64,000 bases of DNA, from the NCBI RefSeq assembly GCF_046707225.1, contig NZ_JBJKOP010000036.1:70832-134831 (forward strand), given 5' to 3'. The number at the start of each line of letters is the position of its first letter. Positions within the stretch are counted from its first letter, which is position 1. The notes beneath the pieces were generated by a model. It ran no database searches and had not been told where the DNA came from. It saw only the letters and a program-made list of their open reading frames with translations. The position numbers and the translations under genes are program-made. Below are positions 47,369 to 58,031 of this stretch, in pieces. Source of the stretch: Caproicibacter sp. (lineage in GTDB: Bacteria > Bacillota > Clostridia > Oscillospirales > Acutalibacteraceae).

Positions 47369-48319
47369 TCAGTCGGAAGTCAGCATGCCGGTTTCCGAGA
47401 CGTCGTATCCGCCGATTGCCTGAAGCTCGGCGCGGAACTCCGGGGAGCGCACCGTTTCCAAAGCCTGCCGGAACAACGGCTTTGAAAGGTTTTCCTCTTT
47501 GAAAACAAGGTCGTACCGTTCCTGCTGCAGAGGAACGAATTCAATCGAATCAACCTGCATTGCCGTTTTTTCTATGCCGACAGCAGCGTCCGCTCCGCCG
47601 CGGGCAACCGCGCCGGCAGCCGCAAGATGTGTGAGGCAGGCGCGGCTGTAGCCCTTGATCCGTGTCCCCTCAAGACCGAGCAGGCGCAGATGCTCATCCA
47701 GAAGAATTCTGGTTCCGCTTCCTTTTTCGCGGTTTGCAATGGTGATGTCGGAGCGCTTCAGGTCTTCCCAGGAGCGCAGGTTTTTCGGGTTCCCTTTTTG
47801 TACGTAGAAGCCCTGCATCCGGTAGGCCAGATTAACCGAGATAACCGCAGTTCCGGGGAGCAGGCTCCGGAGGTATGTCGTGTTGTACGTTCCGGTTTTC
47901 CCGTCCCAGAGATGAGCCGTCGCAAGCTGCACTTCATTGTTATAGAGACCGTAAAGACCGTTGTAGCTGCCGATATACGAACGAAGAATCCGCTGATTCG
48001 GGCGAAATTCTTCCAGTCTGCGGGAGAGCAGGTCAAGCGCAAGGTCCTGCCCGCACAGGACAAATCCGTTTTCGACAGGCTCCCGCTCTGAAAGAAGAGG
48101 ATTTCGGCCTGCGTTTTTGTCCGCTTTGCCCGGGCCGGTCTTGGCGGACTCAAGATACGCGCGAACGTCGCTGTAATCAAAGCGGATTTTATTGCCGATG
48201 CGGTAGCCGTTCAGCTCATTTCGCTTAATCAGCTCGTAGACCAGATTTTTGCTGATTTTCAGCAGATCCGCGACTTCCTGGGGGGTCAGCGCGGTAAGCT
48301 CTTTTGCCGGTTGGTTCAT
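47369..48319 (-). CDS. Transcriptional regulator: excisionase/MerR-type HTH fused to a periplasmic-binding-protein-like ligand domain
   Basis: 316 aa. LTPQEVADLLKISKNLVYELIKRNELNGYRIGNKIRF, followed by a PBP-like domain (...ANREKGSGTRILLDEHL...). Confidence 0.7.
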   Translation of the reverse strand: MNQPAKELTALTPQEVADLLKISKNLVYELIKRNELNGYRIGNKIRFDYSDVRAYLESAKTGPGKADKNAGRNPLLSEREPVENGFVLCGQDLALDLLSRRLEEFRPNQRILRSYIGSYNGLYGLYNNEVQLATAHLWDGKTGTYNTTYLRSLLPGTAVISVNLAYRMQGFYVQKGNPKNLRSWEDLKRSDITIANREKGSGTRILLDEHLRLLGLEGTRIKGYSRACLTHLAAAGAVARGGADAAVGIEKTAMQVDSIEFVPLQQERYDLVFKEENLSKPLFRQALETVRSPEFRAELQAIGGYDVSETGMLTSD

Positions 48320-48573
48320 TTCACAAGTCCCTTTCCGCTTTATTTCGTTACTAATTATACCAAATTGTCAATCGTTTGCAAGAAAAGAATGACGCCTTTT
48401 TGCACTGACTTTATTTATTTTAGTTCATGATGGAATTAATTGGGATTTTTTCTACACTTCACTAATAAATTATGTTTAAAATCGAATAAAACTTTTTATC
48501 AAACGGATTATTTTCGAAGTATTGCAATATAAAACAAAACGATTTAAAATGAAACGGTACAAAACATAAAAAA

Positions 48574-48622
48574 ACAGACGAAAGCGAAGGAGCCTAAATC
48601 ACTTTGCTTCCGTCTGTTTTTT
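48574..48622 (+). terminator. Terminator-like hairpin in the leader of the ABC operon
   Basis: ACAGACGAAAGCGAAG ... CTTTGCTTCCGTCTGT (about 14 of 16 positions paired) followed by T6, 50 nt upstream of the start codon. An A-run precedes it. Confidence 0.55.
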
Positions 48623-48671
48623 ATTTGCTGGAACCGGGATATCCGGCTGCGGCAGACAGGAGGAAAGAGAA

Positions 48672-49856
48672 ATGGAAATGGATCGAGTAAAGAGGAAAAG
48701 CGCACGATTATACAGGGCTGTCATCGGCCTTTCCCTGACAATTCTGGCGGCTGGTCTTTTTGGATGTTCTCAGGGGAGCGCGAGTCCGCCAAATTCACAG
48801 GCAGCCTCCGTTCTCTCCTCCGATGTCTCTTCCGAGGCGACTTCCAGTCATCGGAAGGCCGCGGACGGGACAAGGACGATCACGGACATGATGGGAAACC
48901 GCATCACTGTGCCTGACGAAATCCGCCGGGTGTACTGTTCCAGTCCCATTGGGACCGACTTCCTTTACACGCTTGCGCCCGATACGCTCCTCGGGTGGAG
49001 CTGGGCTTTATCGGACGAGGAGAAAAAATATATTCTCTCTCCGTACAAGGATCTGCCGGTTCTCGGAGGAAACATGGCGGGGCAGAACTCCATCAATACG
49101 GAAAGCGTCATCAAACTGAAACCGGACATTATTTTGGACTTTGCGCACGAGGGACAGGTCGGCGAAGCGGTGAAAAAGCTGAGCGAACAGACGGGAATTC
49201 CGATTGTGGAGGCGCCCTCCGATCTGGACCGGACCGAAGAATGCTATCGATTTTTCGGGAATCTCCTCAATCGAAAGGATCGCGGCGACCAGCTGGCGGA
49301 TTATGTAAGGGATTCTCTCGCAAAGACGAAAGCCGCCTGTGAAAAGGTCCCGGCCGACCGGCGAATGAAGCTGTATTATTCGGAAAGCGCCGACGGGCTA
49401 AAGACGGACGGGACGGATTCCATGCATACGGAGGTGATCAACTTTGTCAGCGCAATCAACGTGGTGGATATGAAAACCACCGCGATGGCGAAGGGAACGG
49501 CTGTGTCGATGGAACAGGTCCTTGCCTGGAATCCGGATGTGATTCTGGTGAATACGAAGATGGGGGGGAGTGAATTTTTGAAATCCGTCTACTCCGACCC
49601 CAAATGGGCCTCTGTTTCCGCCGTAAAAAACAAACGGATTTACACGCCGGTTTCCGTTCCGTTCAACTGGTTTGACCGCCCACCCTCCATGGCCCGTGTG
49701 CTGGGGGTTCAGTGGCTTGCGAGTGCTTTGTACCCGGATACGGTAAAAATAGACCTGAAAAGTGAAGTGCAAAAATTTTATCAGCTTTTTTATCAGGCTG
49801 AAGTATCCGACGAACAGGCCGAAGCGCTGCTCAAAGCCTCGGGGGTCGATCCGTGA
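48672..49856 (+). CDS. ABC importer substrate-binding lipoprotein (FecB/BtuF/TroA-like cluster)
   Basis: 394 aa. Signal peptide with lipobox LAAGLFGC, a Ser-rich linker, then a PBP fold (...WNPDVILV...FNWFDRPPS...). Confidence 0.8.
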   Translation: MEMDRVKRKSARLYRAVIGLSLTILAAGLFGCSQGSASPPNSQAASVLSSDVSSEATSSHRKAADGTRTITDMMGNRITVPDEIRRVYCSSPIGTDFLYTLAPDTLLGWSWALSDEEKKYILSPYKDLPVLGGNMAGQNSINTESVIKLKPDIILDFAHEGQVGEAVKKLSEQTGIPIVEAPSDLDRTEECYRFFGNLLNRKDRGDQLADYVRDSLAKTKAACEKVPADRRMKLYYSESADGLKTDGTDSMHTEVINFVSAINVVDMKTTAMAKGTAVSMEQVLAWNPDVILVNTKMGGSEFLKSVYSDPKWASVSAVKNKRIYTPVSVPFNWFDRPPSMARVLGVQWLASALYPDTVKIDLKSEVQKFYQLFYQAEVSDEQAEALLKASGVDP

Positions 49857-50929
49857 ACGCCCCGTCGGTCAGGCTTGCGAAGATTGAGCGAAGGGCCGGA
49901 CGCGTGCGTATAAACCGAAGAAAAGTGAAAATCGCGGCGGTGTTGCCCATTCTGCCGATTGCCGCTTTTCTGTTTTCCCTCACGGTCGGGCGGTATGGAA
50001 TCCCGCTTCCTGAGTTTTTCAGGCTGCTCCGGATGCGGGCGCTGGGAATCGCCTTGGAAGGAAACTTTTCCACAATGGCGACGGTCCTGTTCGGCGTGCG
50101 CCTTCCCCGGATTTTGAGCGCCTTGCTGGTCGGCGCGGCTCTTTCCGCCTCCGGCGCGACGTATCAGGGAATATTCAAGAACCCCATGGTGTCGCCGGAT
50201 ATTCTCGGCGCCTCGGCCGGCGCCGGTTTCGGCGCGGCGCTGGCGATTCTGAACTCGTTTGGAATTCTCGGCATTGAACTCTCTTCTTTTTTGGGCGGAA
50301 TCACCGCCGTTTTCATGACTTCGCTTTTCACCCGCGCGGTTGGGCGGCACGGAGAAACGGTTTTGCTTTTGATTCTGACCGGAATGGTGGTGCAGAATCT
50401 GTTTAGCGCATTCACCTCCATCACGAAGTATGTTGCGGACCCGAATGACAAGCTGCCGGAGATCACGTTCTGGCTGATGGGAGGACTTTCCTCCATCACC
50501 TGGCGGGAGGTTTGGATGCTTCTGATTCCCTGCATGGCCGGCATGATCCCGCTCTTTTTAAGCCGCTGGCAGATCAACGCGCTGACCTTCGGGGACGAGG
50601 AAGCACAGTCGCTCGGTGTGGATACGCGGAAAATCCGTATTTTGCTGATTTTTGCGTCCACTCTGCTGACCTCGGCTTCCATCGCGGTCTCCGGAATGAT
50701 CGGCTGGGTCGGGCTGATTATTCCGCATCTGACGAGGCTTGCGGTCGGCCCCAATTACAGGGCGCTTCTGCCGGCGTCCGTTCTGATCGGGAGCGCCTTC
50801 CTTCTTCTGGTCGACAATGCCGCGCGCTGCATCTTTCCGACGGAAATTCCGCTTGGAATTCTGACCTCGATTATCGGCGCCCCGTTTTTTCTCTATCTGC
50901 TGCTGAAAAGAAAGGGGGCGGCGGAATGA
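49853..50929 (+). CDS. ABC importer permease (FecCD/BtuC family)
   Basis: 358 aa. RLPRILSALLVGAALSASGATYQGIFKNPMVSPDILG is typical of FecCD. Confidence 0.9.
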   Translation: MNAPSVRLAKIERRAGRVRINRRKVKIAAVLPILPIAAFLFSLTVGRYGIPLPEFFRLLRMRALGIALEGNFSTMATVLFGVRLPRILSALLVGAALSASGATYQGIFKNPMVSPDILGASAGAGFGAALAILNSFGILGIELSSFLGGITAVFMTSLFTRAVGRHGETVLLLILTGMVVQNLFSAFTSITKYVADPNDKLPEITFWLMGGLSSITWREVWMLLIPCMAGMIPLFLSRWQINALTFGDEEAQSLGVDTRKIRILLIFASTLLTSASIAVSGMIGWVGLIIPHLTRLAVGPNYRALLPASVLIGSAFLLLVDNAARCIFPTEIPLGILTSIIGAPFFLYLLLKRKGAAE

Positions 50930-51705
50930 AACTGGAGCTTTTATCCGTCGCGTGCGGGTACGGCGGAAAGAACGTCCTAAGCGGAATTTCGTTCAGCGTT
51001 TCCTCCGGCGAAATTCTCTGCATTCTGGGACCGAACGGCGTGGGAAAAACCACGCTGTTCAAATCAGTGCTCGGATTTCTGAACCTGAGGGGCGGGGAAA
51101 TCCGGGCCGATGGGGAGAATGTGAGCGGCTGGTCGCGAAGAAGGTTTGCACGTTCCGTCGGTTACGTTCCTCAGGCGCACAACACCCCCTTTCCGTTCAC
51201 GGTTTTCGATGTGGTCCTGATGGGCCGCACCGCCTATTTCGGCACGTTTTCCACGCCGGACGAACAGGATCGTAAGATCGTTGAACGGGTACTTGAAGCG
51301 CTGGAGATTGATTGTTTGAGAGACCGCCGGTTTACGGAGCTCAGCGGCGGCGAACGGCAGATGGTTCTCATTGCCCGGGCGCTGGCGCAAAAACCGAAAA
51401 TTCTTGTAATGGACGAACCAACCAGCAATCTTGATTTCGGGAATCAGATTCGCGTTCTGAGGCGGATTAAGAAGCTGTCGCAGAGCGGCCTGGGAGTCGT
51501 GATGACGTCCCATTTTCCCGATCATGCGTTTCTGTGTTCCTCCCGCGTGGCCCTGCTGCGGCGGGGTGGGTTGCAGATCGGCGCGCCGGATACAATCGTT
51601 ACGGAAAAAAATTTACAGGATATTTATGGGGTTTCCGTGAAAATTGCTGAAGTTTCCATCGGAAACGGCATTGGTGTCAAGACCTGCGTCCCCCTGATTA
51701 ACTGA
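50926..51705 (+). CDS. ABC importer ATP-binding protein (FecE/BtuD-like)
   Basis: Start at MKLELL (ATGA overlap with the permease). GPNGVGKTT, LSGGERQ, LVMDEPTS. Confidence 0.9.
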   Translation: MKLELLSVACGYGGKNVLSGISFSVSSGEILCILGPNGVGKTTLFKSVLGFLNLRGGEIRADGENVSGWSRRRFARSVGYVPQAHNTPFPFTVFDVVLMGRTAYFGTFSTPDEQDRKIVERVLEALEIDCLRDRRFTELSGGERQMVLIARALAQKPKILVMDEPTSNLDFGNQIRVLRRIKKLSQSGLGVVMTSHFPDHAFLCSSRVALLRRGGLQIGAPDTIVTEKNLQDIYGVSVKIAEVSIGNGIGVKTCVPLIN

Positions 51706-51735
51706 AAAAGCGTGAAGAACAAGGAGATGAAGAAG

Positions 51736-52374
51736 ATGAATCATGCGGAAGATTTTGACTGCATCGCGGAAAATATCTTTTTTCCGATCTATGAGGTGAT
51801 TGCAAAGGACATCCTCGCTTATTCCAAAATCGCCTCCGGAAGGATTCTTGACCTGGGCTGCGGGGGCGGGCATCTGGGGCTTTCCGTATTAAAACAGGAA
51901 AAAGGGCTTTCAGCTGTTTTACTGGATCGGAACCCGGACGCGGCGGCGATCGCGGAACATCGGGCGGCGCAGTGGGGCCTCAGACAGCGCGCAACGCCGA
52001 TCGTTGCCGACGTTTCACGGATTCCGCTTCCTGACGGCAGCGTCGACCTCGCCGTGAGCCGCGGTTCTTTCGGTTTCTGGCCGGATGAGGGCCTCGCCTT
52101 TTCTGAAATTCTGCGGGTTTTGAGCCCGGGCGGCAAAGCCTATATCGGCGGCGGATTCGGGAACCTGGACCTGAAGCAGAAAATCGTGGAAAAGATGAAG
52201 ACGGTTCACCCCGACTGGCCGGAGTGCGTTCACCGGAAGACCAACGGATTTACCGCAGAGGATTACGGCAAAATTTTAAGCGGGCTCGGCGCGGAATTTG
52301 AGTTCATTGACAATGAGGAGAAGGGCTTCTGGATTTTGCTGCAGAAGCCACGCAGAATGGAGGCCGTGTCATGA
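51736..52374 (+). CDS. Class I SAM-dependent methyltransferase
   Basis: ILDLGCGGGHLG motif I; VLSPGGKAYIGG. Start at MNHAED (AAGGAG 9 nt upstream). The ORF track starts at 51712. Confidence 0.8.
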   Translation: MNHAEDFDCIAENIFFPIYEVIAKDILAYSKIASGRILDLGCGGGHLGLSVLKQEKGLSAVLLDRNPDAAAIAEHRAAQWGLRQRATPIVADVSRIPLPDGSVDLAVSRGSFGFWPDEGLAFSEILRVLSPGGKAYIGGGFGNLDLKQKIVEKMKTVHPDWPECVHRKTNGFTAEDYGKILSGLGAEFEFIDNEEKGFWILLQKPRRMEAVS

Positions 52375-53051
52375 AGCTGATTACAGTTTCGGGCCCGCCG
52401 TCCTCCGGGAAAACCTCCGCCGTTCTTCAGGCGGTTCGGTGTTTCTCACGCAGTGTCAGATTCGGCGTCGTTAAATTCGACTGCCTTTCCACCTGCGACG
52501 ACGGGATTTATCAAAAATCGGGGATTCCGGTACGGGTCGGCATCTCCGGAAATCTGTGTCCCGATCACTATTACATTACAAATATCAGCGAGGCGGTTCA
52601 GTGGGGACTTGAAAATCGTTTCGATTATCTGATTTCCGAAAGCGCGGGGCTGTGCAACCGTTGTTCCCCCCATATCCGGGACGTCCTCGCCGTCTGTGTA
52701 ATCGACAATCTTTCCGGAATCAACACACCCCAGAAGATCGGACCCATGCTTCGAAACGCGGACCTCGTGGTTGTCACAAAGGGCGATATCGTTTCGCAGG
52801 CGGAACGGGAGGTGTTTTCCTTCCACATCCGGAAAACAAATCCCAGAGCAACCGTTGTTTCCATCAACGGCCTTACGGGGCAGGGGGCGCTGATTCTGAG
52901 CAAGTGGTTTGAGCAGGCGAAAGACATCGACAGCCTGGAGCACATGCGTCTTCGCTTTACCATGCCGGCGGCCGTATGCTCCTACTGCCTCGGACAGACG
53001 CTGATCGGGAAGGAATTTCAGATGGGATTTACACGAAAAATGGAGTTTTGA
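52371..53051 (+). CDS. G3E-family (HypB/UreG/CobW-like) P-loop GTPase, putative metallochaperone
   Basis: 226 aa. Walker A VSGPPSSGKTS. GNLCPDH. ISESAGLCNRCSP (compare ENVGNLVCP of HypB). VVVTKGD (NKxD-like). C-terminal CSYC. Confidence 0.6.
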   Translation: MKLITVSGPPSSGKTSAVLQAVRCFSRSVRFGVVKFDCLSTCDDGIYQKSGIPVRVGISGNLCPDHYYITNISEAVQWGLENRFDYLISESAGLCNRCSPHIRDVLAVCVIDNLSGINTPQKIGPMLRNADLVVVTKGDIVSQAEREVFSFHIRKTNPRATVVSINGLTGQGALILSKWFEQAKDIDSLEHMRLRFTMPAAVCSYCLGQTLIGKEFQMGFTRKMEF

Positions 53052-53060
53052 GGGATCGAT

Positions 53061-54119
53061 ATGGAACACAGTCAGATTTTAGAAATGGTTCATACGCAGA
53101 AGCTGGGGCGGCTTTTCGAGCTTTGCCCAGCGATTCAGTTTTTTTTCAGCGGGATTCGCCTGGAGCGGCTGGACACGGAGGAGACTCTGGAGGAAGCGCT
53201 TCAGGGAATCGCCGACGAATATCTGGAGGATTTTGGCCTGACGCGCGGAGAAATTTCGGACTCCCTCGTTCGCCTGATGGAAAAGGACCGGGAGGAAGAG
53301 TCCGGGGGCCGGGTCGCCGTCAGGGAACTGACCGTCCTTCCCGGACTTGATAAATCCGGAAAAGCGGAGCAGTCGGGCTTTACGGTGCGCCGTGGCGAAA
53401 TTGTCGCCGTCGTCGGGCCGACCGGTTCCGGGAAAAGCCGCCTTCTGGGAGACATCGAATGCCTTGCCCAGAGCGACACGCCGACGGAAAGGAGCATTCT
53501 GATCAACGGTGAAATTCCGGACGACGCCTGTCGCTTTGCGCTTGGCGGACGCCTAATTTCACAGCTTTCGCAGAACATGAATTTTGTCATCGACCTGTCG
53601 ATCCGCGACTTTTTAACCATGCATGCGCAAAGCCGCATGGTCAAACAGGCGGACGACAGAATCGAGGAGGTCTTTCTTTGCGCAAACCGGCTGTCCGGGG
53701 AACCGTTCCAAATGGATTCCGGCGTCACGCAGTTGAGCGGGGGCCAGTCCCGGGCGCTGATGATCGCCGACGCCGCAATCCTCAGCAATTCCCCGATCGT
53801 GCTGATCGACGAGATTGAGAACGCGGGAATCGACCGGGAACAGGCCGTCAGGCTTCTTGCCGAGCAAGAAAAAATTGTGTTTCTTTCAACGCACGATCCG
53901 CTTTTGGCCCTTTCGGCCGACCGCAGGGTGGTCATCCGAAACGGGGGCGTTTACCGGGTGCTGGAAACGTCCCGGCAGGAAAGAAGCAACCTTGCGGTGA
54001 TCGAACGGGAGGACCGGAAGCTGATGGAGCTTCGCCGGTCCATCCGCCTTGGCGGCCGGCTGGATTTCGACATGGAAGCTTTTTTTCACGGGATTCAGGG
54101 TTCGGCGCAAAGAACTTGA
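53061..54119 (+). CDS. Stand-alone ABC-type ATPase with an N-terminal extension of about 110 aa
   Basis: GPTGSGKSRLL, Q-loop SQLSQ, LSGGQSRAL, VLIDEIENAGID, STHD. No cognate permease is adjacent. Confidence 0.7.
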   Translation: MEHSQILEMVHTQKLGRLFELCPAIQFFFSGIRLERLDTEETLEEALQGIADEYLEDFGLTRGEISDSLVRLMEKDREEESGGRVAVRELTVLPGLDKSGKAEQSGFTVRRGEIVAVVGPTGSGKSRLLGDIECLAQSDTPTERSILINGEIPDDACRFALGGRLISQLSQNMNFVIDLSIRDFLTMHAQSRMVKQADDRIEEVFLCANRLSGEPFQMDSGVTQLSGGQSRALMIADAAILSNSPIVLIDEIENAGIDREQAVRLLAEQEKIVFLSTHDPLLALSADRRVVIRNGGVYRVLETSRQERSNLAVIEREDRKLMELRRSIRLGGRLDFDMEAFFHGIQGSAQRT

Positions 54120-54140
54120 AATAAAAAGGAGGATACGAGT

Positions 54141-55160
54141 ATGAGTCAAATGGTCAAAACCGGCGAGGCCTGCTCCAGCATCATCGCGGACAGCGGACTG
54201 GACTTTATCGGTCAGGTTCTGTGCCCGATGAAAGCCAATTTTAAACAGGGCTACGACGAAGTGGCGGAACGGTATAAGAAGGAAACAGGATGTGCTTTTT
54301 ACAGCTATGTTCCAACCGTCTGCGGGAGCAAGGGAGACCGGAACGAAGCGACGGCCGGAGATATCCTGAAGTACCTGACCATTGACGATCTTCCGGGTAT
54401 GATCGCCTCGTTCGGACTGGGGGATTACTTTTCCTCACAGTTCCGCGAGCGTTTTCTGAAACAGGGTTATTTTGAGTCCATCAAAAGGAACGGTTTGAGC
54501 TCGGCCTTTGAAGAAGCGGGAATTGACGACCCATCCGGCGAGTTTTACATTTATTCCGGGTATCCCGCCGTATTTCTGGTGGACCGGAAAAAGCTCGGCG
54601 ATCTACCGGTTCCCCGCAAATGGGAGGATCTGCTCAGCCCCGTTTACCGCGATAACATCACCATCGGGGGAGCACATGGCATGGTTTCCCAAACACTTCT
54701 GCTTTACCTGTACAAGATGTTTGGGGATGAAGGGCTCAAAATGCTGGAACCGAATGTCCGTCAGGCGATGCACCCCTCGGAAATGGCGAAACTTGCGGGC
54801 ACATCTGCCAAAGCGGGCACCGCCGTCTACGTCATTATGCTGTTTTTTGGAAAAGCCTGCGGCAAGACAGACCGCACGGAGCTTGTCTGGCCGCAGGACG
54901 GCGCAATTTTCGATCCCGCTTTTATTTTGGTCAAAAAAGGCATGACGGAGAAGTATCAGGTGCTGATCGATTATATCACCGGTGAACGGTACGGGAAGAT
55001 TTCCGCCGCAAACAGTTTTCCGGTGACGACTCCTCTGGTAAGAAATCCCCTGCCTGAAGGAGCAAAGCTGCAATGGCTGGGGTGGGATTTTATTAACTCC
55101 CACTGTATGGAAGAGGTTGTTGGCCATGTGACGGAACCGTTTCAAAAGTTTTTAATTTAA
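54141..55160 (+). CDS. Solute-binding-protein-like protein lacking any signal peptide or lipobox (predicted cytoplasmic)
   Basis: 339 aa. AAGGAGG RBS. The N-terminus MSQMVKTGEACSSIIADSG is not hydrophobic. The overall pattern resembles type-2 PBPs (iron/polyamine class), which is a weak call. Confidence 0.45.
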   Translation: MSQMVKTGEACSSIIADSGLDFIGQVLCPMKANFKQGYDEVAERYKKETGCAFYSYVPTVCGSKGDRNEATAGDILKYLTIDDLPGMIASFGLGDYFSSQFRERFLKQGYFESIKRNGLSSAFEEAGIDDPSGEFYIYSGYPAVFLVDRKKLGDLPVPRKWEDLLSPVYRDNITIGGAHGMVSQTLLLYLYKMFGDEGLKMLEPNVRQAMHPSEMAKLAGTSAKAGTAVYVIMLFFGKACGKTDRTELVWPQDGAIFDPAFILVKKGMTEKYQVLIDYITGERYGKISAANSFPVTTPLVRNPLPEGAKLQWLGWDFINSHCMEEVVGHVTEPFQKFLI

Positions 55161-57955: not shown

Positions 57956-58031
57956 TGGTGGAGCATAGCGGGATCGAACCGCTGACCTCCACACTGCCAG
58001 TGTGGCGCTCTCCCAGCTGAGCTAATGCCCC
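57956..58031 (-). tRNA. tRNA-Ala (anticodon GGC)
   Basis: The reverse complement GGGGCATTAGCTCAGCTGGGAGAGCGCCACACTGGCAGTGTGGAGGTCAGCGGTTCGATCCCGCTATGCTCCACCA folds as a cloverleaf. Anticodon loop CUGGCAG. G3:U70 Ala identity pair. Encoded CCA. Confidence 0.95.

Follow-up and report, generated by a model that had tools for sequence, protein, structure and literature searches.

A MolBC-A-like importer operon with a conserved cytoplasmic trio in Caproicibacter sp.: a candidate system for molybdate or tungstate acquisition and hand-off

UreG and HypB are nickel metallochaperone GTPases. Type II import of molybdate and tungstate is represented by MolBC-A of Haemophilus influenzae (HI1470/HI1471/HI1472), experimentally shown for molybdate; MolA-type binders are low-affinity, and the regulator of this system was called unknown by its authors (PMC4031551). 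According to the summary given where it is cited, TaoR of Desulfovibrio vulgaris (Rajeev et al. 2019, cited in PMC11980592) joins an excisionase-type HTH to a PBP-like domain and regulates aor and tupABC in response to tungstate. In Methanosarcina acetivorans, the operons ma1234-1224 and ma1200-1197 were annotated as Fe ABC transporters and are de-repressed on Mo depletion; the ma1234 site was bound by ModE in EMSA, and ma1234-1224 was placed near vnf and anf (PMC12327845).

Here, a locus of Caproicibacter sp. was analysed within a window of 64,000 nt, i.e., the whole stretch of DNA under study. On balance, we consider it probable that this locus serves to acquire molybdate or tungstate and to hand it off in the cytoplasm.

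Gene organisation and leader region

The initial annotation had described a divergent regulator next to seven co-directional genes (48672–55160), and this was confirmed: all eight ORFs were found at the coordinates it gave (Table 1), the domain calls of all eight proteins exceeded the Pfam gathering scores, and profile searches run for each protein upheld every domain assignment. Its one-operon claim was likewise supported by the tight packing of the array, with 4-nt overlaps at 49853/56, 50926/29 and 52371/74 and gaps of 6, 9 and 21 nt at the other junctions. The annotated gap range of 9–30 nt was slightly off at the junction of importer ATPase and methyltransferase, where the GTG start at 51712 leaves 6 nt; with a downstream ATG start, this gap would fall in that range. 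The importer ATPase is translationally coupled to the permease via an ATGA overlap, and GGAGG-type ribosome-binding sites lie upstream of 48672, 52371 and 54141. The same gene set recurs in another genome (L001) at 62% protein identity and, rearranged, in dozens of species, so these genes do not stand together by chance.

Table 1. Features of the locus, with positions given in the window
Feature	Coordinates	Strand	Domains or remarks
TaoR-family regulator (predicted)	47369..48319	-	HTH_17 PF12728 + PBP_like PF12727
Intergenic regulatory region	48320..48671	+	Divergent promoter-like sites and leader hairpin
MolA-like substrate-binding lipoprotein (class III, Peripla_BP_2)	48672..49856	+	PF01497
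MolB-like type II importer permease (FecCD family)	49853..50929	+	PF01032
Importer ATPase (MolC/FecE type)	50926..51705	+	PF00005
Class I SAM-dependent methyltransferase	51712..52374	+	PF13649, PF08241
Cys-rich G3E GTPase, UreG/HypB-like branch; trio member 1	52371..53051	+	PF02492
Soluble ABC ATPase; trio member 2	53061..54119	+	PF00005 at residues 105-251
Cytoplasmic PBP-fold protein; trio member 3	54141..55160	+	PF13343

A promoter scan of the intergenic region returned promoter-like sites on the minus (48381–48354) and plus (48522–48550) strands. The operon leader contains a strong hairpin and T-run at about 48569–48628, with a predicted folding energy of −42.4 kcal/mol (z = −4.86) for 48551–48675, and the hairpin is also kept in C. 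fermentans EA1. No Rfam family matched the intergenic region, neither a cobalamin nor another riboswitch. A search for an operator motif of the regulator yielded none that was shared or definable, which counts against the proposed molybdate/tungstate system.

Importer and regulator

The first three genes had been taken for a standard FecB/FecCD/FecE-type importer, a view that was not borne out. The best solved relative of the permease (FecCD, 292 bits, 6.3e-87) was HI1471 (MolB; 2nq2, 2.1e-75) with 257 bits, vs. 177 for HmuU, 159 for FhuB and 147 for BtuC. The lipoprotein binder (82 bits, 4.4e-23 to its Pfam family) was closest to 4pag (3.7e-50), 4ovk (7.9e-26) and HI_1472/MolA (9.9e-23), compared to about 1e-4 to 1e-5 for BtuF, CeuE and IsdE; 4pag and 4ovk, its two closest structures, have no stated ligand, a point against the Mo/W reading. 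The importer ATPase matched ABC_tran with 116 bits (2.2e-33). Because the importer proteins missed every Fec, Fhu and Btu equivalog cutoff of NCBIfam, the permease was MolB-like and the binder fell in the MolA group, a generic FecBCDE importer was rejected. By sequence, the importer is predicted to be MolBC-A-like and of the molybdate/tungstate type.

With MolBC-A it has in common the three-part design of class III SBP, FecCD-family permease and ATPase, MolB being the top solved match of the permease and MolA a clear relative of the SBP. It differs in that the SBP is a Gram-positive lipoprotein and predicted oxyanion binder, whose signal sequence ends in LFGC (a plausible lipobox, although F is unusual at position −2), and in that the operon adds a methyltransferase, a cytoplasmic trio and a TaoR-type regulator. 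We know of no such methyltransferase, trio or regulator at the H. influenzae locus.

Alternatively, the imported compound could be a macrocycle resembling haem, a corrinoid or F430, which would be modified by the methyltransferase or by radical SAM or NFL enzymes, with the G3E protein inserting or removing Ni, Co or Fe. The top NCBIfam matches of the permease (BtuC) and importer ATPase (a corrinoid ATPase) point this way, as do the nickel chaperones UreG and HypB among the fold matches of the G3E protein, NFL D/K pairs at L002 and L013, a radical SAM enzyme at L009–L011 and L039, an HmuY-like gene at some loci and TP_methylase genes near L008. However, NFL and radical SAM genes occur in a minority of loci only, all Btu and haem equivalog cutoffs were missed by a wide margin, the permease scored higher to MolB than to BtuC or HmuU, no riboswitch was found at the locus, and the regulators are of Mo/W type. 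We regard such a cofactor pathway as highly improbable.

The divergent regulator had provided the initial annotation with a lead to molybdenum and tungsten, which was retained, and with a TunR-type label, which was not. The protein consists of an HTH_17 domain (residues 11–59, 54 bits, 1.9e-14) and a PBP_like domain (residues 103–290, 228 bits, 5.9e-68). Archaeal MoeA fusions (PRK14498) carry the same PBP domain at their C-terminus (alignment at 1e-57); a search of solved structures found no relative. TunR reportedly has a XerC/D-like DNA-binding domain and a ModE-like TOBE domain, and the Pfam search found neither here, so a TunR-type identity was rejected. On domain content, the regulator is assigned the TaoR architecture, sharing the excisionase-type HTH and PBP-like effector domain. 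Members of this family adjoin Mo/W transporters (e.g., L004, L018): in L004, L014 and L018, where the cluster includes modABC, this regulator type is transcribed divergently from it, and in L091 it stands beside nifH. The putative targets differ, being a type II importer and trio here and tupABC or aor for TaoR.

The cytoplasmic trio

As the initial annotation had noted, none of the last four genes belongs to a canonical importer. Among 79 species loci, the G3E GTPase, ABC ATPase and PF13343 binder occurred together in 67, and this trio is the conserved unit. The methyltransferase was present at 22 of the 79 loci, 17 of which also had a Fec-type importer; it therefore goes with the importer rather than the trio. 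The enzyme, probably an importer-associated accessory, matched PF13649 and PF08241 at about 1e-16 (class I methyltransferase, 62 bits) and, over its full length, the putative SAM methyltransferase 3dlc (2.5e-37), its best solved relative. It reached no NCBIfam cutoff, the best being the DVU_1556 family (49.5 vs. 155 required).

The G3E assignment was upheld by both profile search (PF02492, 38.5 bits vs. a cutoff of 20.7) and Foldseek, with UreG and HypB as top matches (TM 0.61–0.72). In 73 homologs, GPPSSGKT, C63-P-D-H66, ESAGL-C95-x-x-C98, C109, TKGD and C203-x-x-C206 are invariant, and H101 is kept in 93%; such a Cys/His set on a UreG/HypB fold is typical of a metal hand-off GTPase. At E ≤ 1e-10 the protein has 6,667 clusters, the best 120 of which are 61–95% identical and carry generic names only. 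To our knowledge, the cargo of functionally characterised G3E proteins is Ni, Zn, Co/B12 or Fe and never Mo or W, which speaks against a role in Mo/W handling.

The soluble ABC ATPase (352 aa) has no permease partner of its own. Its ABC_tran domain (60 bits) is preceded by some 100 aa of N-terminal extension, its similarity to any solved nucleotide-binding domain is only about 50 bits, and 64 homologs retain Walker A, LSGGQ, Walker B and the H-loop. The N-terminal profile aligned over 29 columns (hhalign probability 91%, E 1e-6) to DUF1858, a soluble domain that longer homologs of the binder carry in place of a signal. The binder itself (SBP_bac_6, 230 bits, 4.2e-68) begins MSQMVKTGEACSS... 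and lacks a hydrophobic export signal, as do all 30 aligned homologs, in line with the earlier description of a solute-binding-like protein without one. In 185,579 species genomes, 436 relatives were found, with C28-P29, S90, W161, D163, H211, D253 and G314-W315-D316 among the near-invariant residues. The AlphaFold model (pLDDT 88.2) matched the cluster-D binders P5PA, AfuA, FbpA and PotD (TM 0.55–0.63, about 15% identity). The fold is nearer to Fe(III), sugar-phosphate and polyamine binders than to ModA, which was absent from the top 50 fold matches; both observations count against a molybdenum or tungsten cargo.

Genomic associations and proposed function

With neighbours scored within 10 kb, 40 of the 79 loci had ModB (modABC), ModE, ModD, a TaoR-like regulator or nif genes; modD, MoeA, FmdE-domain and CowN genes recur. 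In L004, L014 and L015, the cluster shares one operon with true modA (204.7 vs. a cutoff of 62.5) and modB (256.8 vs. 182.6), behind the TaoR-like regulator type. The identical 8-gene unit of L001 abuts a true nifHDK-EN-B cluster, the Geobacterales-type loci L059 and L064 have the order trio, modABC, nifHDK, and in a widely sampled nif operon of Clostridium type (L091–L093) the trio is flanked by nifN-B and nifV. Against Mo/W handling count the 26 loci with no Mo, nif or importer neighbour, and the 64-kb window, in which no Mo/W enzyme, nif or cofactor gene was found. So do the TonB-dependent receptors and HmuY-like gene of Gram-negative versions, since a bulky chelate fits these better than a free oxyanion.

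The Methanosarcina counterpart (L041) has the operon FecCD-FecE-FecB-FecB-SBP6-G3E-ABC2-nifV, with a ModE box exactly 33 bp upstream; the box has 2 nt changed relative to the ma1234 site of M. acetivorans, and L039 has a perfect ModE box (chance expectation 0.08). Homology, near-identical box and equal distance link L041 to ma1234-1224, and ModE control, as independent regulatory evidence, favours the Mo/W reading. That system differs from ours in being archaeal and under ModE rather than TaoR-type control, in including nifV and lacking the methyltransferase, and in that its authors read it as iron transport and did not single out the trio (PMC12327845). Their reading counts against a Mo/W cargo and agrees with an iron supply route, in which the importer would take up a Fe chelate and the trio would strip iron or chaperone it for the assembly of Fe-S and nitrogenase clusters; regulation would respond to Mo only because more iron is needed when nitrogenase is expressed. 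The annotation of both M. acetivorans operons as Fe transporters, the prevalence of the Fe(III) binders FbpA, FutA and SfuA among PF13343 and binder fold matches, and the recurrence of TonB-dependent receptors, a TonB gene and DUF364 'heavy-metal chelation' genes favour it. One G3E member, Nha3, is linked to Fe, a further point in its favour. Nevertheless, we judge iron supply unlikely: the specific resemblance of permease and SBP is to MolB and MolA, not to Fhu, Fec or Hmu proteins, the cluster shares an operon with true modAB and has modD and moeA as neighbours, and the Tyr-Tyr-His-Glu iron ligands of FbpA are not evident among the invariant residues of the cytoplasmic binder family. Moreover, every module-adjacent regulator found is of Mo/W (TaoR-like, ModE) or nif type, and no iron regulator was recognised there, Fur and DtxR lying outside the specific search.

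Another oxyanion or metalloid, such as vanadate for V-nitrogenase, or selenite, arsenite or tellurite, might instead be detoxified or processed by the methyltransferase and sensed by the PBP-like regulator. The methyltransferase is weakly, below threshold, similar to ArsM and TehB-type enzymes, MolA-type binders have low affinity (PMC4031551), the Methanosarcina operon stands beside genes scored NifD/K-like, and ma1234-1224 is near vnf/anf and de-repressed without Mo (PMC12327845). Yet modABC, modE, modD and moeA are Mo/W-specific, most nif-linked loci have a Mo-type NifD (that of L001 passes the Mo-nitrogenase equivalog), no anfG/vnfG-sized gene was evident in the Pfam-annotated nif-linked loci L001 and L091–L093, and most trio loci are devoid of the methyltransferase. 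Such a cargo appears decidedly improbable.

The best reading is thus Mo/W import combined with a new cytoplasmic hand-off module. Since the trio co-occurs with FecCD-type importers (32/79 loci) and the HTH-PBP regulator (12/79) and the G3E call holds, the import and hand-off idea of the initial annotation survives in its operon, non-importer genes and Mo/W lead, though not in its generic Fec importer, TunR label or open cargo list (Ni, Co/B12, Zn, Fe, haem, siderophore). From comparative context, we infer a narrower cargo of group-6 oxyanions, connected to nitrogenase and molybdenum cofactor. Neither a publication nor a curated family describing the trio was found, in agreement with the earlier claim that the cluster is not described as a unit.

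In the proposed pathway, the MolA-like lipoprotein would capture the oxyanion outside the cell and the MolB/MolC-like importer carry it inward, where the signal-less PBP-fold protein would bind the incoming species. A dimer of the soluble ABC ATPase may spend ATP to load or unload this binder, and the Cys/His-rich G3E GTPase would take the metal on thiolates and deliver it, GTP-gated, to cofactor assembly: FeMo-co in nif-linked genomes, possibly a molybdenum or tungsten pterin cofactor in genomes like this one. The TaoR-family regulator would sense cytoplasmic oxyanion via its PBP-like domain and control the divergent operon, probably repressing it at replete metal by analogy with TaoR and tupABC.

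With HypB and UreG, the G3E protein shares the fold, P-loop, ExxG and (N/T)KxD motifs, and its Cys-Pro-x-His lies at the position of the UreG CPH. It differs in its low identity (about 20%), scores far below the equivalog cutoffs (45.7 vs. 121 for HypB and 27.7 vs. 204 for UreG), extra invariant CxxC, Cys and C-terminal CxxC, an ABC ATPase and PBP-fold protein instead of HypA/UreE/F/H-type partners, and a Mo/nif rather than hydrogenase or urease context. Compared to known Mo/W donors and stores (NifQ, Mop/ModG/Tub, MosAB), the trio is unrelated in sequence or fold, without TOBE domain, NifQ Cys motif or amino-acid-kinase fold, and we know of no description of a Mo or W system that combines GTPase, ATPase and PBP-fold protein. 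MosAB is, however, a precedent for nucleotide-dependent Mo handling, and Tub and Mop are cytoplasmic oxyanion binders, as proposed for the binder here. The trio would share with these systems the niche between Mo/W import and cofactor assembly, and may be a missing step in the delivery of molybdenum or tungsten to the enzymes of anaerobes.

Operon layout and regulator

The ORF map comprised a regulator gene on the minus strand and seven plus-strand genes across 48672–55160, joined by 4-nt ATGA/GTGA overlaps at 49853, 50926, and 52371 and by gaps of 6, 9, and 21 nt at the other junctions. Inspection of the junctions revealed GGAGG-type ribosome-binding sites, and the packing is that of an ordinary operon. 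The remaining long ORFs of the region were treated as non-coding, since they overlap the operon genes out of frame or antisense. All domains named in the initial annotation scored above their Pfam gathering thresholds. The nearest public relative of the window was Caproicibacter (Caprobacter) fermentans EA1, with 96% identity in the last operon protein. Elsewhere, the 64 kb carries genes for EPS synthesis, a trp operon, an esterase, an oleate-hydratase-like protein, a transketolase, and PTS genes. A tRNA gene (62.8 bits), unrelated to the operon and about 2.8 kb 3′ of it, was the sole Rfam gathering-level match in the window.

Features of the operon and its surroundings (window positions)
Feature	Position	Strand	Domain or remark
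Regulator	47369–48319	−	HTH_17 and PBP_like, above Pfam gathering score
Importer proteins	48672–51705	+	Peripla_BP_2, FecCD, ABC_tran, above Pfam gathering score
Methyltransferase	51712–52374	+	Class I methyltransferase domain, above Pfam gathering score
G3E GTPase	52371–53051	+	cobW/HypB/UreG, above Pfam gathering score
ABC ATPase of the trio	53061–54119	+	Second ABC_tran, from residue 105
Cytoplasmic PBP-fold protein	54141–55160	+	SBP_bac_6, above Pfam gathering score
tRNA gene	57959–58031	−	

The regulator fuses an excisionase-type HTH (PF12728, 1.9e-14) to a PBP-like domain (PF12727, 5.9e-68), and had initially been likened to tungstate/molybdate-responsive regulators of the TunR type. TunR, as reportedly described by Kazakov et al. 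in 2013, combines a XerC/D-recombinase-like DNA-binding domain with a ModE-like TOBE/Mop effector domain. Pfam searches of the regulator returned HTH_17 and PBP-like/SBP families alone, with no Phage_integrase or TOBE match, and TunR identity was rejected because the recombinase-like and TOBE domains are lacking. The HTH–PF12727 architecture matches instead that of the TaoR family, named for a tungsten-responsive regulator of aldehyde oxidoreductase that has an excisionase-type HTH and a PBP-like domain, according to the part of PMC11980592 that cites Rajeev et al. (2019). The TaoR architecture and the missing TunR domains thus upheld the Mo/W lead and removed the TunR name. The PBP-like domain also aligned (1e-57) to the PBP domain with which archaeal MoeA fusions end, a domain that has been linked to Mo/W capture (PMC11733289). 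Among homologous loci in other genomes (L numbers), related regulators lay divergent from modABC in L004, L014, L018, L022, and L040, and next to nifH in L091.

The 352-nt leader contained a very stable hairpin (approximately 48569–48622) between an A-run and a T-run, the latter reaching to about 48628; the fold of 48551–48675 had a free energy of −42.4 kcal/mol (z = −4.86). Located about 20 nt past the best promoter-like site and about 45 nt before the start codon of the first gene, the hairpin recurred in C. fermentans EA1 with several substitutions, matched no Rfam family, and might act in attenuation or as a bidirectional terminator. Inverted-repeat enumeration in 11 non-redundant regulator–operon intergenic regions, out of 14 collected, detected no shared palindrome or operator, only AT-rich noise.

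Affinity of the importer

The first three genes had been taken for a standard FecB/FecCD/FecE-type importer; the domain families held, but the filing under Fec/Fhu/Btu did not, since the equivalogs were missed and the permease was closest to MolB. The importer proteins scored below all Fec, Fhu, Btu, and haem equivalog cutoffs of NCBIfam (score vs. cutoff: FecB-type, 23.3 vs. 320; FecD, 183 vs. 406; FecC, 179 vs. 396; FecE, 167 vs. 375; BtuC, 235 vs. 461; BtuF, 35 vs. 234). The best solved relative of the permease was HI1471 (MolB; 2nq2, 2.1e-75, 257 bits), compared to 177 bits for HmuU, 171 for BhuU, 159 for FhuB, and 147 for BtuC. The first solute-binding protein (SBP), of class III, whose signal sequence ends in LFGC, in keeping with the lipobox noted initially, matched MolA (HI_1472; 3psa/3psh) at 9.9e-23 over residues 68–377, and BtuF, CeuE, IsdE, and FhuD at merely 1e-5 to 1e-3. 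It scored higher against 4pag and 4ovk, structural-genomics proteins without a stated ligand. A generic Fec siderophore or B12 importer was rejected on the basis of the missed cutoffs and the MolB match. A cobalamin riboswitch in the leader is common, if not universal, for BtuCDF corrinoid importers; here, no cobalamin or other riboswitch reached the Rfam gathering score across the window, and relaxing the threshold to E ≤ 5 for 48250–48750 gave only spurious, hairpin-driven matches. MolBC-A is an experimentally characterised importer of molybdate (and tungstate; PMC4031551), and the label MolBC-A-like for the present importer refers to homology, the corresponding specificity being putative.

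Conservation and composition of the three-gene module

At least 436 relatives of the cytoplasmic PF13343 protein were found in 185,579 species-representative genomes, a minimum, as the search pattern restricted the scan. For 79 loci with 10-kb flanks, ORFs were assigned by phmmer best match, and the remaining neighbours by unbiased clustering and Pfam annotation. Within 10 kb, the complete trio (PBP-fold protein, G3E GTPase, and ABC ATPase) was present at 67 of the 79 loci, a Fec/Mol-type importer at 32, a ModABC-type importer at 13, a TaoR-like regulator at 12 (with an importer in 10 of these), and the methyltransferase at 22, of which 17 also had a Fec-type importer. The conserved core of the cluster is formed by its last three genes, and the methyltransferase goes with the importer rather than with the trio. 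These counts bear out an association of the trio with importers and HTH–PBP regulators, the lack of which would have spoken against the initial annotation. A PF13343 gene without an adjoining G3E or ABC partner occurred at L026, L030, and L033 (Paenibacillus forsythiae, Clostridium tyrobutyricum), even though C. tyrobutyricum encodes the G3E protein at another site (P0079); the trio is thus not always contiguous.

Clustered neighbours included NifB (13 loci), ANTAR response regulators (10), TonB-dependent receptors (9), DUF364/DUF4213 (8), ModE (7), ModD (6), N-terminal ModE-type HTH proteins and TrmO-like proteins (5 each), NifA-like, NifV, CowN, and FmdE-domain proteins (4 each), and MoeA (3). 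A Mo-specific or nif gene lay within 10 kb at 40 of the 79 loci, and at 19 of the 32 with an importer. We judged this to be well above chance, from the small share of a genome that such genes fill and not from a computed background rate. Six loci (L049, L052, L019, L020, L058, and L068) combined DUF364/DUF4213 and TrmO_N-like genes with the Fec-type importer and the trio; the DUF364/DUF4213 annotation reads 'putative heavy-metal chelation', TonB-dependent receptors were often present, and the combination may point to a version of the system, in Gram-negative lineages, that works through a chelate.

Several individual loci stood out. At L001 (62% identity), the regulator and seven genes were arranged as in the window and directly followed by nifH, two P-II genes, nifD, and nifK, and then by nifE/N-like genes and nifB-type domains; its NifD scored above the Mo-nitrogenase equivalog (655.8 vs. 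a cutoff of 653.55). In Anaerobacterium chartisolvens and relatives (L004, L014, and L015), a single operon with a divergent TaoR-like regulator contained modA, modB, modC, the Mol-like importer, the methyltransferase, and the trio, with equivalogs passed for modA (204.7 vs. 62.5) and modB (256.8 vs. 182.6). Geobacterales-type loci (L059, L064) had the gene order trio, modABC, nifHDK. At L091–L093, whose protein was present in 380 collection blocks, the trio was located inside a Clostridium-type nif operon, with nifN-B and a PpiC rotamase on one side, nifV-omega/alpha on the other, and a TaoR-like regulator upstream of nifH. In C. pasteurianum, this slot holds modA and modB. The PpiC-type rotamase in the nifN-B/trio interval (L091, 9185–9922) may be a NifM-like maturation factor.

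At L002 (845–8222) and L013 (MAG Bacillota), NifH and a nitrogenase-like D/K pair were interleaved with the Mol-like importer, methyltransferase, and trio. NifH passed the nifH cutoff, whereas D and K were far under those of NifD and NifK (264 vs. 653 and 317 vs. 427, respectively), an arrangement suggestive of an NFL system, as yet uncharacterised, that is linked to the module; a review of NFL proteins gave no function for the clades possibly matching this D/K pair. NFL, radical SAM, and HmuY-like additions would suit a tetrapyrrole or NFL-cofactor pathway, but they occurred at a minority of loci and riboswitch and equivalog support was absent, making such a pathway an improbable explanation for the operon.

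The G3E protein (226 aa) scored 38.5 for PF02492 against a gathering score of 20.7, and its AlphaFold model (pLDDT 83.7) had UreG and HypB as best fold matches (TM 0.61–0.72, approximately 20% identity), so that profile and fold searches agreed with the HypB/UreG-like assignment made initially. Among 73 loci-derived and 30 database homologs, the nucleotide motifs (P-loop GPPSSGKT, ESAG, and TKGD) and a set of Cys/His residues (C63-P-D-H66, C95-x-x-C98, C109, and the C-terminal C203-x-x-C206) were invariant, and H101 was conserved in 93% of homologs. The SIMIBI fold, the ExxG and (N/T)KxD motifs (here ESAG and TKGD), and a Cys/His metal motif between Walker A and B (here CPDH) all accord with membership in the G3E GTPases. 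The protein fell below the NCBIfam equivalogs for HypB (45.7 vs. 121.2) and UreG (27.7 vs. 204.2), and neither the loci annotated with Pfam nor the recurrent neighbour families showed genes for hydrogenase or urease. As for COG0523 (CobW/ZigA/YeiR), the GCxCC motif was replaced by CPDH, there was no CobW_C match, and the ZigA score was 16 vs. 600. The subfamily, with 6,667 clusters at E ≤ 1e-10, is unusually conserved (mean column identity of 73% in a 30-sequence alignment); the best 120 of these clusters (P0040–P0159) were 61–95% identical, included sequences from Clostridia and Syntrophorhabdus, and were all generically named. The public label of Ni2+-binding hydrogenase/urease GTPase is probably wrong for this subfamily.

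In the ABC ATPase of the trio (PF00005, 5.3e-16), Walker A, Q-loop, LSGGQ, Walker B, and H-loop were all kept among 64 homologs, and similarity to any solved nucleotide-binding domain reached about 50 bits at most. No permease of its own was found, importers where present having their own ATPase, and many loci (e.g., L045, L060, L063, and L091) carried the trio without any importer; the absence of a permease partner stated in the initial annotation was thus corroborated, and a role as second ATPase of the importer was rejected. Its N-terminal extension (consensus YPYAxDFFxSxGL...LEDxGxxRxQ) was weakly related to DUF1858 (hhalign 91%, E 1e-6, over just 29 columns), the cytoplasmic-type domain with which the longer versions of the PBP protein begin.

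The PBP-fold protein scored 229.9 for PF13343 (cutoff 24.6) and, as first noted, had no signal peptide or lipobox, a hydrophobic N-terminus being absent from the window protein and from 30 aligned homologs. Its model (pLDDT 88.2) had a PBP type II fold of cluster D, with P5PA, AfuA, FbpA, and PotD at TM 0.55–0.63 in Foldseek; these generic cluster-D binders, at TM of about 0.6, provided no specific match from which to call a ligand. Near-invariant C28-P29 and H211 at helix N-termini, and S90 after a lobe-1 strand, would occupy typical ligand positions of the PBP fold in this model. The methyltransferase matched PDB 3dlc ('putative SAM-dependent methyltransferase', structural genomics) over its full length (2.5e-37), and thus has a close relative with a solved structure and no assigned function. 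At L010 (6832–8616; also L009 and L011), a gene for a 594-aa radical SAM protein was flanked by the methyltransferase and a second Peripla_BP_2 gene; its N-terminal half was AmmeMemoRadiSam-like and its C-terminal part weakly matched the periplasmic-binding-protein model TIGR04281 (residues 396–504), an unusual fusion.

Cargo and proposed role of the module

A 2025 study of Methanosarcina acetivorans established the ModE motif RTTATGT-N8-RCATAAY and, by EMSA, the binding of ModE to the ma1234-1224 promoter at a site 33 bp from the start codon; it lists these genes as "Fe ABC transporter" genes together with nifV (PMC12327845). In Methanosarcina sp. T3 (L041), the operon consisted of FecCD, FecE, two FecB genes, the PBP-fold, G3E, and ABC ATPase genes, and nifV, and the box ATTATGTTTGTTTGAACACAAC was located exactly 33 bp 5′ of the operon ATG, with 2 differences from the published ma1234 site. 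L039 had a perfect ModE box 5′ of FecCD, FecE, a radical SAM gene, and the trio (chance expectation 0.08). Based on these two boxes, a Mo-responsive regulator very probably controls the archaeal counterpart of the cluster directly, in agreement with the TaoR-like/ModE association in bacteria.

That study, the sole one touching a homologous operon, groups it under iron transport (PMC12327845). Iron supply, its authors' own reading, would also fit the FbpA-like fold, the TonB receptors, and DUF364, but leaves unexplained why the importer resembles MolB and MolA, why modAB is co-operonic and modD and moeA lie nearby, and why the regulators recognised are exclusively of Mo/W type; we consider it unlikely, if less so than the tetrapyrrole pathway. 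At some loci, the cargo may be vanadate or a metalloid.

For molybdate/tungstate, both cargo and mechanism are predicted from genomic context and homology. From the parts list and the associations among its members, which were observed directly, we infer a sequence in which the oxyanion would be sensed by the regulator, imported via the MolA/B/C-like system, and captured by the cytoplasmic PBP; the ABC ATPase dimer would power loading or release, and the metal, held on the G3E thiolates, would undergo GTP-gated delivery to FeMo-co assembly or MoeA-type insertion. No client enzyme for such a hand-off is encoded within the 64-kb window, and the putative client in Caproicibacter would most simply be a Mo/W pterin enzyme or a distant nif cluster.

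The importer and regulator types were already known; we regard the locus as a likely Mo/W uptake system whose cytoplasmic module is undescribed. The trio had no curated NCBIfam family or informative annotation, and a literature search, outside which many subscription papers lay, found no publication on it, consistent with the initial statement that the pathway had not been described as a unit. A 2026 survey of Mo/W genes mentioned neither MolA nor TaoR nor a chaperone. The route of Mo/W from importer to FeMo-cofactor or pterin cofactors in anaerobes is poorly understood, and the trio is a concrete, testable candidate for the missing step. Mo speciation in sulfidic habitats also makes Mo acquisition a paradox (PMC11484787). 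The module has thousands of members, occurs near modABC, modE, and modD and within nif operons, and has tractable carriers in Methanosarcina, Clostridium ljungdahlii, Geobacter-type bacteria, and Sporomusa.

We tentatively propose, as a possibility well short of an even chance, that the trio is an unrecognised nucleotide-driven Mo/W chaperone, the first G3E system for a group-6 metal, turning imported molybdate, tungstate, or thiomolybdate into a thiolate-bound form for FeMo-co assembly and pterin-cofactor insertion. If true, the metal range of G3E chaperones would reach group-6 metals, genes labelled 'Fe3+ ABC transporter' or 'Ni2+-binding GTPase' would need re-annotation, and minimal gene sets for nitrogen-fixation engineering could change. 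NifQ is, to our knowledge, largely restricted to Proteobacteria, and as a chaperone the trio would take the equivalent role in NifQ-less anaerobic bacteria and archaea.
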